This document shows positions 2,992-48,529 of a DNA stretch of 64,000 nucleotides, in pieces (position 1 is the first letter of the stretch; each line of letters begins with the position of its first letter). A program made the position numbers and the translations under genes. The notes under the pieces were generated by a model. That model made no database searches, was not told the origin of the DNA, and saw only the letters and a list, made by a program, of their open reading frames with translations. The DNA lies in the sequence record MF158043. One strand, 5' to 3'. This DNA comes from Shigella phage Sf16.

Positions 2992-3132
2992 ATGTTAGAT
3001 ATCATTAAAAACCCTATCCTTTGCGGTATGATTGTTTCTGTTGTGTTGCCATTAGCAATGCTCATCATTGGTGAAATCTCAGATAAACTTTTTGATAAAA
3101 AACTACTTGCAATGCAGAATCAAAACAAGTAA
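2992..3132 (+). CDS. small hydrophobic peptide (46 aa)
   Basis: ATG 7 nt after conserved RBS block; translated by eye; below ORF-track size cutoff. Confidence 0.3.
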   Translation: MLDIIKNPILCGMIVSVVLPLAMLIIGEISDKLFDKKLLAMQNQNK

Positions 3133-3197
3133 AGTATTTATCAACGGGGAGGGAGACTTCCCCACTAAACAAAATTCCTAAACTGGAGAATCTGAAA

Positions 3198-3449
3198 ATG
3201 GCTACTATCCGCGCAACTGTTAACAATTTTGGCTTCCATGTATTAGATGTTAAATTTGATATGGTTGGCACTGGTGATGCTTTTGGCATGGTTGATATGT
3301 GTCTGAAAGCAACTATTCAGGATTACAATCAATCTGAGTGGTTCTGGAAAGAAGTTAAACAAGAAGTCTTAAAGGATGGCGTATCCTCTTACTATTGGGG
3401 TGATTCTCTTATCACGCTTTACTATGAAGTTGACGGCTTCAATAACTAA
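3198..3449 (+). CDS. hypothetical early protein
   Basis: ORF track; type B cassette upstream. Confidence 0.5.
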   Translation: MATIRATVNNFGFHVLDVKFDMVGTGDAFGMVDMCLKATIQDYNQSEWFWKEVKQEVLKDGVSSYYWGDSLITLYYEVDGFNN

Positions 3450-3490
3450 CAAGTCGCCGCAACGGGGCAAATAGCCCCAGACACCTTTAC

Positions 3491-3514
3491 AGCCCCTTAG
3501 ATGGGGCTTTTTTA
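3491..3514 (+). terminator. rho-independent terminator closing the early region
   Basis: AGCCCC-loop-GGGGCT followed by TTTTTT. Confidence 0.75.
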
Positions 3515-3519
3515 CGTCT

Positions 3520-5015
3520 TCCTAGAATCTTACCAGACATTTAGAACAATAACTCTATAGCTTACTCTATATCCTCTTATCAAATCAACTATAAATTCCC
3601 TTAAATATAAGCCCATAACCCGAAAGGGAAGGGCAATCCCTAAAACGCTCTATAACGCTCTATACGGGCTTATCATCTCATCTTAAGCAATCATATTAAC
3701 CTACTCTTAAAAGCCCTTCATAGAGCTTTCTAGAGCCTTAAAAGAATCTTATAAGGGTATAAGCTTTATTATCTCGTTAGTATCTTGTGAATGGTTAAAC
3801 AGGGGCTTGATAATAGCTTTAAAGTATGCTATGGAGTCTAAAAAGAGCCTTAAAAGTAACGTAAAAGTTAGCCCCCTTTACATTCTCTTAACAAAATCTT
3901 AACAAATGCTACATAGTTATGCTTGTTAGCCCCTTGTTAAATCCTTGTTAGAGGTATGTTAAAAGTTTGTTAGACTCTTTGAAGTCCCTGTATAAGCCCC
4001 TACAAAGCCCTATAAAGAGCTATACAGGTAGTTGGGGTGTAGTTACTAGGGAGAAGCTTAGAAGAGGCTATACAGAGCTATACAGGGCTTTTAAGAGGGC
4101 TTTTAGTTGGGCTTGTACCAACCCTAAGAGAATCACTAAGAAGCATAGGGAATGATAAGAGAAGAGATAGTGACCATGTTAATAGCTTGTTAAAAAGGTT
4201 TAGAACTTGTTAATTATCTTAACAAAATAACTCTTAAGATTTAACTATTTAGCAACTTATAAGCAACTTGTTAGACTCTTGTAAGCAATGTTACAGACTT
4301 GTTAAGCTCTTGTTAGTTCTGTTAAGGGATTGTTAAGGACTTTGAAAGAGATGTTAAGAGCTTGGAAGAGTTGTTAAGAGATTGTTAATGATATTTTAAG
4401 ATTTTGCAAAGGGGATGTTACAGGGCTGTTAAGGGCTACCAAGCAGATATACATCCTCTGTAGATATTTTTCAGATTCTCCAAAGACCCCTAAATAAACA
4501 CTACCTAGTCTATTTTATAAAAATTTTATAATTCTGAATAACTATCTATACACTATCTTATATAAAACAGGAATTAACAGGCTTATAAGAGACCTTGTTA
4601 GTACCGTGTTAGACCTTGTAGGATAAGCCTTAGAAGGGAATACCTGTTTAGTGTTATATAACAGTCTATATGGAGGCTTAGTAATACCTAGTGATTCTGC
4701 TATATAGGGTACTATCATTTACCTAGAGATTAAGATGAGTATAGGGGCTTCTAAGGGGCTAGGAAGAGGTTAGGAAGGTGATTGTATAGGGTTGATTAAT
4801 GGGAGGCTTAGAAGGCTTTATAGAGGGCTATATAGAGAGCACTATTTAGGGACTAAGAGGCTATATAGATACTATATAATACTATATAGAGATGATGCTT
4901 AGAGAGGGTGTTTAGAAGGGTATAGATATTTTATCACATATCATGGTGACCCAAGATGAACGGAGTGAATCCCAAATTTTATAAAAATTATAAATTTCGT
5001 AAATTTTACTCAATA
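3520..5015. repeat. non-coding region dense in short direct repeats (TTGTTAR, CTATAyAG, GCTTAGAAG)
   Basis: No credible ORF; about 20 TTGTTAA/G copies between 3900 and 4620; lies between convergent gene blocks. Confidence 0.6.
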
Positions 5016-5037
5016 AAAGCCCCAATTAAGGGGCTGT
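5015..5037 (-). terminator. rho-independent terminator for the minus-strand block
   Basis: On the minus strand: AGCCCC-TTAATT-GGGGCT then T-run. Confidence 0.7.
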
Positions 5038-5043
5038 ATAGTT

Positions 5044-5715
5044 TTACATCACTTCACTAAGCATAGTTTGCAATGAAGTTTTAGAAGTCTGGAAGAAGTG
5101 TGTGAACCCATTATGACGTTCTCTTACCTGAATCATTATCTGGTCACCCTTAATCGGGTGTGAACTAATATGGTATTCATTCATGTTCAGTACAGCACCC
5201 AAACCATCTATAATGTGTCTGAGTATGTCATATTCAACAAATTCTTCTTTACCTGTGACCTTGATACAAACACCTTTGTTGGTTCTCTTAGGGTTTATAT
5301 CTTCCATAACCAGCATTTGTTGTCCACCAAGAGAAATCATAGAGAACTCTTTACGGTTCTGCTGCTTAACATACATCTCAAGTTTCTTCAAAGTATCTTC
5401 AAAGAACGGATAAGATTTCTTGACAAAGATACCTTCAAGTGGTTCTTTACCTGAATCTTCTCGTTCCATCTTAAGTCGATTAACAAGTAAGTCTAAAGAC
5501 CACTTCTCACTTTCATCAAGATGTGTGTTGATATCATCTAGGCTAAGTACCAGATACTTTCTTTCAAGTTCAAACTTTTTCATCTCTATCAAATCCTTAA
5601 AACATTTCTTAGTAATTGCTTCCCATTCTTCGGAGTTCTTTCTCTTCCTCTTCAGATGGGGAACCATATCTGTTAAGTTCTTCCAACTCTTCTTCAGTAG
5701 GTGTCCCATAATCAC
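5044..5715 (-). CDS. hypothetical protein
   Basis: ORF track, 223 aa. Confidence 0.5.
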   Translation of the reverse strand: MIMGHLLKKSWKNLTDMVPHLKRKRKNSEEWEAITKKCFKDLIEMKKFELERKYLVLSLDDINTHLDESEKWSLDLLVNRLKMEREDSGKEPLEGIFVKKSYPFFEDTLKKLEMYVKQQNRKEFSMISLGGQQMLVMEDINPKRTNKGVCIKVTGKEEFVEYDILRHIIDGLGAVLNMNEYHISSHPIKGDQIMIQVRERHNGFTHFFQTSKTSLQTMLSEVM

Positions 5716-48229: not shown

Positions 48230-48529
48230 TTAATCTGCCAGCCTTAAGTTAAAATTTACACCAAGTTTTGTACAAGCATTAAGCATGTACTCTAAAGAAA
48301 TCTTTTGAGGGTCGTTAATGATATTTGATACACGACTCTGTGAGATTTCACAAACAGTTGCTACTTGAGCCTGAGAAAGTTTTAGCTTCTCAATCTCTTT
48401 AGAGAATCTGAAAGATACAAAGTCTTTCATCTCTTCTATATCCATTGGACAGACATAACTCTCCATTTCAGCCTCTCTATCAGCCTCCCAAGAATCTTGA
48501 GGTGCATATGGGTCAAAGACTTCATTCAT
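48230..48529 (-). CDS. helix-turn-helix (XRE-like) DNA-binding protein
   Basis: QVATVCEISQSRVSNII HTH-like segment. Confidence 0.5.
   Translation of the reverse strand: MNEVFDPYAPQDSWEADREAEMESYVCPMDIEEMKDFVSFRFSKEIEKLKLSQAQVATVCEISQSRVSNIINDPQKISLEYMLNACTKLGVNFNLRLAD

Follow-up and report, generated by a model that had tools for sequence, protein, structure and literature searches.

Organization of the gap between two convergent gene blocks

We analyzed a 64,000-nucleotide stretch of the genome of Shigella phage Sf16 (sequence record MF158043), hereafter called the window, and in particular a 1.6-kb intergenic gap at positions 3450-5043, where an open reading frame (ORF) on the + strand stops at 3449 and an ORF on the - strand stops at 5044. 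When the gap and its flanks were matched to related phages, the window could be assigned to Mooglevirus, a genus of the Felix O1-like myoviruses (Ounavirinae). The closest matches were the Mooglevirus genomes 3HA14, Sf14, Sf13-19, Michonne, Mordin and Moogle (86-94% identity), followed by more than 200 Felixounavirus records at about 75-79%, and the window also displays the Felix O1 gene order of a 25-tRNA cluster, the large terminase subunit (TerL) gene and the portal gene. We consider it probable that the gap is the genome-end region, with a single copy of the direct terminal repeat (DTR) at 3871-4440 as expected in a circularised or concatemer-type assembly, and that a lattice of regularly spaced TGTTA units in this repeat is a recognition array.

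An earlier note on this DNA, made from the sequence alone, had described a non-coding, repeat-packed region bounded by the terminators of the two convergent blocks, and both the boundaries and the lack of genes were borne out. Terminator hairpins were located at 3491-3508 on the + strand and at 5018-5035 on the - strand (Table 1); terminators are annotated at both matching sites in the Michonne and Moogle records and at the right one in that of KhF2. Two short ORFs of 62 aa (with a TTG start) and 58 aa lie within the gap. No ORF of at least 40 aa was conserved in position in the gap across 10 related phages, the Felix O1 gap does not contain any ORF of at least 40 aa, and the 3-nt periodicity of codons was absent from the gap. 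The records of several relatives (Michonne, ESh20/ESh22, pEC-M719-6WT.1 and UAB_Phi87) annotate between one and six "hypothetical proteins" in the end region, among them the Michonne ORF CPT_Michonne111 (L001:4972-5172), which crosses the right DTR boundary. Since none of these ORFs is conserved between relatives, they are probably over-calls.

Other functions for the gap were considered and rejected. A structured non-coding RNA was discarded because no curated Rfam family matched over 3000-5600 (none at E ≤ 1), and a promoter region because sigma-70-like matches numbered 6, to be compared with 5.7 expected in shuffled sequence. An AT-rich 14-mer repeated in the gap was likewise discarded as a recurring promoter motif, as its only 2 copies in the window are both in the gap.

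Relatives with determined ends place the terminal repeat inside the gap

Each of the several relatives with determined genome ends places a short DTR inside the gap. The record of Citrobacter phage HP1 carries an annotated exact repeat of 570 bp at both of its ends, which aligns to 3871-4440 of the window with indels of +11, -21 and +11 bp as the sole length differences. Escherichia phage D4 displays an exact 581-bp end repeat whose boundaries, TA/GCCCCCTTAACATT and GTTAAGGGCTACC/AAGCAGATATACA (a slash marks the boundary), are those of the HP1 repeat, and its announcement states that the direct terminal repeats were detected with PhageTerm. This program also gave a DTR of 613 bp for Ro111lw, and that of Pr103Blw is 581 bp long. 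In UAB_Phi87, a DTR of 608 bp was derived from Bal31 digestion and run-off sequencing of virion DNA (PMC4837284, Fig. S1); the published repeat maps to positions 987-1594 of sequence L016, and the homologous segment of the window is approximately 3879-4442. A fourth genus is represented by the Hafnia phage SPARTY (Kolesnikvirus), which carries an exact end repeat of 439 bp; this repeat has a homologous left start, GCCACTTTTACATTTCGTTAACAA, and beyond its right boundary comes the AAGCAGATATACA box, as in the window. By homology to these relatives, the DTR of Sf16 is placed at 3871-4440, the segment to which the end duplications of HP1, D4 and SPARTY correspond. Among the possibilities listed in the earlier note, that of a packaging or terminal-repeat region is therefore supported.

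The way in which other records were opened points to the same positions. Those of SeKF_63, Ro111lw, HP1 and D4 all begin at the base equivalent to 3871, and that of pEP20 is linearised exactly at the right DTR boundary. The record of Erwinia phage vEam_PM_6 (PP079182.1, L156:1-9) opens with an Illumina adapter tail, TTCCGATCT, fused to the left end GCCACTTTTACA. As such a fusion would be expected from the ligation of an adapter to the natural end of a DNA molecule, this contaminant incidentally marks the physical terminus.

In the window, the left boundary motif GCCCCCTTTACA is found at 3871 and the right one, GGGCTACC/AAGCAG, at 4433-4446, a spacing that gives 570 bp. Both motifs are single-copy in the window, where the right junction sequence also occurs once, and in 33 distinct relatives each of the two is present once, at a distance of 558-658 bp from the other. 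In Felix O1 itself, they lie within the 1.6 kb that separate ORF23 from ORF24. Furthermore, the TerL encoded in the window, about 95% identical to Felixounavirus TerL, falls in the Felix O1 clade, which has been grouped with DTR packagers (PMC4837284).

The terminal repeat carries a helically phased lattice of TGTTA units

The short repeats of the gap proved to be local features. Counting exact matches, TTGTTAR was found 57 times in the window, of which 16 in 3888-4601, and the TGTTA core occurs in the gap 22 times on the + strand and 5 times on the - strand, as compared to 2.7 expected per strand, that is, with an approximately 8-fold enrichment and an orientation bias. The octamer CTATAYAG has 13 sites in the window, 7 of them in the gap and one more in the right terminator. 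Additionally, the AT-rich 14-mer ATTTTATAAAAATT is present in two identical copies, at 4512-4525 and 4976-4989, and nowhere else in the window. The inventory drawn up in the earlier note (about 20 copies of the TTGTTA motif, several CTATAyAG, and AT-rich tracts) was therefore a fair one, and the possibility that these motifs would be equally frequent genome-wide does not hold, as they are strongly concentrated in the gap when compared with the rest of the window. The repeats resembling GCTTAGAAG, with two exact and seven one-mismatch copies, are locally enriched in the gap, yet the motif is also frequent elsewhere in the window.

The gap as a whole displays a periodicity of 10-11 nt, its autocorrelation at lags 10 and 11 being 4-8 standard deviations above that of 570-bp segments elsewhere in the window. 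Within the DTR, which holds 19 forward and 3 reverse TGTTA cores (22 in all) in units with the approximate consensus cTTGTTAAGa, 15 of the 18 spacings between + strand cores are multiples of about 10.5-11 bp, a number that none of 20,000 random placements reached; spacings of 11, 20-22 and 33 bp were seen. The orientation of the cores switches at about 3911-3921. Counted inward from the cuts, the first unit begins 18 nt from the left one and the last stops 9 nt short of the right one, where this final unit of the right array, TGTTAAGGGCTACC, abuts the cut, so that phased repeats adjoin both cut sites. The features of the region are collected in Table 1.

Table 1. Features of the genome-end region of Sf16 and the expected terminase, in window coordinates
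Feature	Position	Strand	Remarks
Intrinsic terminator, end of + strand gene block	3491..3514	+	hairpin 3491-3508, AGCCCCTTAGATGGGGCT, then T run
Left unique flank	3512..3870 (~360 bp)		conserved, non-coding; in the virion expected just inside the right-end DTR copy
CTCTATA-type 10-bp repeats, left flank	3553-3571, 3648-3664		
Conserved box AAAGTaACGTAAA, end of left flank	3853-3866		
Left DTR boundary, predicted left genome terminus	3870..3871		...GTTA/GCCCCCTTTACATT; record starts of relatives
DTR, single copy as at a concatemer junction	3871..4440 (570 bp)		by homology to HP1, D4, UAB_Phi87
Two reverse TGTTA units TCTTAACAAAATCTTAACAAA, directed to left end	3886..3906	-	18-34 nt from left end
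Left array, five forward TGTTA units	3922..3974	+	exact 11-bp spacing
DTR middle, 10-bp units of CTATAAAG / CTATACAG / GCTTAGAAG type	3975..4170		
Right array, 14 forward and 1 reverse TGTTA unit	4174..4433	+	phase ~10.5 bp
Right DTR boundary, predicted right genome terminus	4440..4441		...AAGGGCTACC/AAGCAGATATACA
Right unique flank	4441..5014 (~575 bp)		conserved, non-coding; in the virion expected just inside the left-end DTR copy
CTATATAG / GCTTAGAAG repeats, right flank	4545-4920		
Twin AT-rich 14-mers ATTTTATAAAAATT, bracketing right flank	4512-4525, 4976-4989		
Conserved imperfect palindrome TCACATatcATGGTGA	4934-4949		between the twin 14-mers
Intrinsic terminator, end of - strand gene block	5015..5041	-	hairpin 5018-5035
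TerL, large terminase subunit	21549..23165	+	expected cutter at both boundaries

The cores are conserved while the spacers drift

When ten phages representing three genera were aligned, the positions of the TGTTA cores were 94-100% conserved as compared to 67-81% for the spacers, and each relative retained 18-23 forward and 2-6 reverse cores. The indels that distinguish the DTRs of relatives consist of whole 11-bp units, and the DTR lengths fall into classes about 11 bp apart (558, 567-570, 579-582, 591-593, 601-603, 612-614 and further). At the nucleotide level, conservation of the gap (70-78%) is equal to or slightly higher than that of the flanking ORFs (66-71%), whose proteins are merely 40-62% identical between relatives; TerL identity ranges from 69 to 95% across the phages compared, the lowest value being that of SPARTY. 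The least conserved part of the DTR is 4090-4170, which also contains a 21-bp indel.

Several blocks in and around the repeat did not vary: a box at each cut, the one around the right cut (4427-4453) being invariant in 10 aligned phages, an AT-rich block at 4510-4528, the twin 14-mers and the palindrome at 4934-4949. An inverted motif, TAGCCC(CC)TTAACA, was also found at both boundaries in the enterobacterial genera.

More distant relatives were sought in three ways. A search with the flanking proteins did not find any beyond the enterobacterial genera, and a sensitive DNA search reached Kolesnikvirus. When IMG/VR was scanned for runs of four TGTTA units at 11-bp spacing, more than 120 contigs matched, only 9 of which were homologous; as most of the others were unrelated perfect tandem repeats, we regard this pattern scan as uninformative. 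It is to be noted that one unrelated viral contig of 14.1 kb (IMGVR_UViG_3300021400_002676, L091) displays a 38-nt array of TGTTA units, inverted at its two ends (14-51 and 14055-14092), which may be an inverted terminal repeat made of similar 11-bp units.

A proposed packaging model and its alternatives

In phages of the T7 type with short DTRs, replication yields concatemers with one repeat per junction, the second copy of which is synthesised during packaging (PMC10438801). By analogy, the most likely mechanism for Sf16 would be one in which the terminase cuts both boundaries of a single-copy concatemer junction. Replicated DNA would form concatemers carrying one DTR per junction, TerL would cut at TTA/GCCCCCTTTACA and at GGGCTACC/AAGCAGATATACA, and strand-displacement synthesis would duplicate the repeat in such a way that both ends of each packaged genome carry it. 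The 22 TGTTA(R) units, grouped in two clusters that each abut a cut site, with units 11 or about 21 bp apart, would be sites for a protein bound head-to-tail along one face of the helix. This protein is most likely a recognition partner of TerL with a role similar to that of a small terminase subunit (TerS), and it would mark the DTR and position the cuts; the CTATA-type arrays of both flanks may join the same nucleoprotein complex. We take the units as probable protein-binding sites because their cores are conserved while the spacers drift, because they are helically phased and directionally ordered, and because they cluster at both cuts, and we propose a partner of TerL because the lattice adjoins the cut sites. 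The intrinsic bend of the DTR, calculated with a crude wedge model, is ordinary (26 degrees per 63 bp, with a window mean of 25); a static bend does not explain the periodicity, and the lack of a special bend again points to protein binding. The "binding array" proposed in the earlier note is in this respect a fair description of what the conserved cores and drifting spacers suggest.

Several observations weigh against this reading or limit its reach. The termini of Sf16 itself are placed by homology to its relatives, and the run-off ends of UAB_Phi87 differ from the read-based boundaries, lying 8 nt further in on the left and 2 nt further out on the right. Selection for phase is not proven by the length classes, as replication slippage alone can yield whole-unit indels. 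The inverted motif TAGCCC(CC)TTAACA is absent at the right boundary of SPARTY, and for this reason we do not take it as a determinant of the cut site. It is solely by its position beside the cuts that the lattice is assigned to packaging as opposed to replication, end protection, recombination or the binding of a host factor. Finally, no DNA-binding partner was found, no TerS could be recognised in the ORFs upstream of TerL, and the published papers on Felix O1 and UAB_Phi87 do not report one either (UAB_Phi87: PMC4837284).

The candidates that were inspected for such a role did not fit. Of two ORFs upstream of TerL, one (68 aa) encodes an acidic protein devoid of any DNA-binding signature and the other (238 aa) matches DUF7217; both were rejected as TerS. 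At 48230-48529 on the - strand lies a 99-aa ORF of the XRE/Cro helix-turn-helix type, annotated "transcriptional regulator" in phage D4, which is the sole obvious small DNA-binding protein in the genome parts examined. As a binder of the lattice it is a poor candidate, since a protein of the XRE type would be expected to bind palindromes and not direct repeats.

An unlikely alternative is that the gap is, or also contains, an origin of replication, as the earlier note had suggested among other options. The repeats would then be iterons, which the arrays do resemble, and the invariant AT-rich 19-mer at 4510-4528, whose 14-mer is repeated at 4976 and which stands outside the TGTTA arrays, would be the unwinding element. 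The GC skew also turns from negative to positive in the gap, near 3900; this switch coincides with that of motif orientation and is explained by it. The origin option found no specific support, as neither a DnaA box (TTATNCACA) nor an IHF consensus (WATCAANNNNTTR) is present in the gap, no recognisable initiator, helicase or primase gene adjoins it, the neighbouring ORFs being devoid of known domains, and the arrays coincide exactly with the mapped DTR, which already accounts for their location. A search of the gap for a Chi site was also negative. It is very improbable that the repeats have no sequence-specific function at all and represent a minisatellite generated by slippage at a gene-free end, tolerated because only the cut sites matter. 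Slippage predicts both indels of entire 11-bp units and the steps of about 11 bp between length classes, and the middle of the DTR (4090-4170) is poorly conserved; slippage does not explain, however, why cores are 94-100% conserved while spacers drift, why every relative carries 18-23 forward copies, why core and phasing persist in Kolesnikvirus despite a TerL that is only 69% identical, or why conservation of the gap matches that of the flanking genes. A partition centromere of the plasmid type, such as the 11-bp iteron arrays of R1 parC, was rejected, as the neighbouring ORFs contain no partition domains (ParR/ParM-like) and the phage is lytic.

The identity of the putative binding protein leaves room for another, quite unlikely, alternative in which a host response regulator of the OmpR/PhoB family, the best match being PhoP, would dock on the TGTTA units. 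Phosphorylated PhoP dimers would coat the DTR, and this coating might link the protection of the ends, circularisation or packaging to Mg2+ or envelope signalling in the host, or titrate PhoP off its targets. The TGTTAR hexamer followed by 5 nt, repeated head-to-tail with a period of 11, follows the grammar of the PhoP box, (T/G)GTTTA-N5-(T/G)GTTTA, and the half-sites TTTGTTAAG and GGTTAAT occur among footprinted PhoP boxes (PMC3335776). We built a PhoP matrix from 23 footprinted Salmonella PhoP boxes and scanned the window with it. The DTR, which makes up 0.9% of the window, contained 6 of the 18 matches whose score equalled or exceeded the median of real boxes and 13 of the 126 that reached at least their lower quartile, and the top match reached 15.5 bits as compared to a median of 10.9 for real boxes. 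Pairs of units in the DTR scored 7-15.5 bits, which is within the range of footprinted boxes, and these matches are clustered, albeit with a weak profile and with cores one base off the consensus. Phages infecting Salmonella, Escherichia, Shigella, Citrobacter and Hafnia/Erwinia carry the core unaltered, as might be expected if a conserved host factor bound it. A phage protein that is itself conserved accounts for this just as well, as illustrated by TerL, which is 69-95% identical across the same phages. The likeness to PhoP boxes is furthermore one of resemblance, obtained with an AT-rich matrix of low information: one base separates TGTTAA from the TGTTTA consensus, and the TGTCA core of PhoB matches no less well. 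We thus give little credence to the DTR being an array of about 22 PhoP-box-like half-sites coated by host PhoP or by another winged-helix protein of the OmpR/PhoB type, a proposal drawn from motif likeness. If it were true, a lytic phage would be relying on a two-component regulator of its host, or on a mimic made by the phage, for marking, protecting or processing the genome ends, in a family that lacks a recognisable TerS.

Comparison with known systems

The existence of a DTR in Felix O1-like phages is already known, since it has been measured, reported from PhageTerm and annotated in some records. The DTRs of UAB_Phi87 (608 bp), Ro111lw (613 bp), Pr103Blw (581 bp), HP1 (570 bp) and D4 (581 bp) are homologous to that of Sf16 and share its boundaries, its position relative to the gene blocks and its length range; the Sf16 repeat is a further member of this set with no essential difference. 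The published accounts of these DTRs that we consulted give only lengths or raw sequence, and none of them describes a TGTTA lattice with an 11-bp unit, length classes or conservation of the flanks. The lattice inside the repeat and the boxes at boundaries and in flanks that do not vary among the four genera thus appear to be undescribed, and in the literature we found no transcriptome or packaging study of the Felix O1-like group.

Among other viruses, T7 has short-repeat arrays adjoining its terminal repetition. The resemblance to T7-type packaging extends to an exact, non-permuted repeat of a few hundred bp, present in one copy per junction and with a second copy made at packaging (PMC10438801). 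Unlike T7, Sf16 is a myovirus; its gene order is unrelated, a TerS is not recognisable, and its arrays fill the repeat as well as the flanks; the terminal gene blocks of Sf16 are transcribed toward the ends, whereas the early genes of T7 run inward from the left end. The pacL/pacR boxes of SPP1, the pac hexamers of P1 and the R sites of lambda cosB are likewise helically phased clusters of short repeats by the terminase cut, and they bind the small terminase subunit. These phages have headful packaging or cohesive ends and a known TerS, in contrast to the two predicted cuts about 570 bp apart and the approximately 22 units of Sf16. The boxes of OmpR/PhoB regulators such as PhoP share the hexamer plus 5 nt, the 11-bp period and the direct orientation, and they differ in being single or paired at promoters, as opposed to the approximately 22 half-sites in a terminal repeat devoid of promoters.

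The "a" sequence of herpesviruses is a terminal direct repeat in which arrays of 12-bp DR2 units lie between pac1 and pac2, and it is processed by the terminase and the portal. In both cases the repeat measures a few hundred bp and consists largely of some 20 copies of a unit of 11-12 bp, with cleavage and packaging signals (predicted ones in Sf16) at the edges and a homologous terminase-portal machine. The two are not related in sequence, and they differ in host domain and in replication mode, so that the likeness probably arose by convergence.

The comparison with relatives allowed us to place the physical ends of the Sf16 genome without new experiments, which helps annotation, as the records of several relatives call probably spurious ORFs across the gap. 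Knowledge of these ends is also of value when phages of the Felix O1-like group, employed in therapy and diagnostics, are engineered or rebooted. The TGTTA lattice and the invariant boundary boxes provide a candidate packaging signal that can be mutated, in a large group of phages without a known TerS, and the lattice could serve as direct bait for the missing recognition protein. A binder acting as the partner of TerL would be notable because no TerS has been recognised in the Felix O1-like family.

Other features of the window

The tRNA cluster of 25 genes lies directly upstream of TerL, at 16042-21116, and contains an HNH endonuclease ORF (17896-18243) and a DUF7217 ORF (20224-20940). GATC has no site in the window (1-64000), as compared to about 200 expected from shuffled sequences, and CTGCAG, ATGCAT, CAGCTG, GGTACC and CCATGG are also absent, with 8-24 sites expected for each; GAATTC occurs once, and CCGG is depleted approximately 2.6-fold. 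The window thus displays a strong avoidance of Dam and restriction sites.

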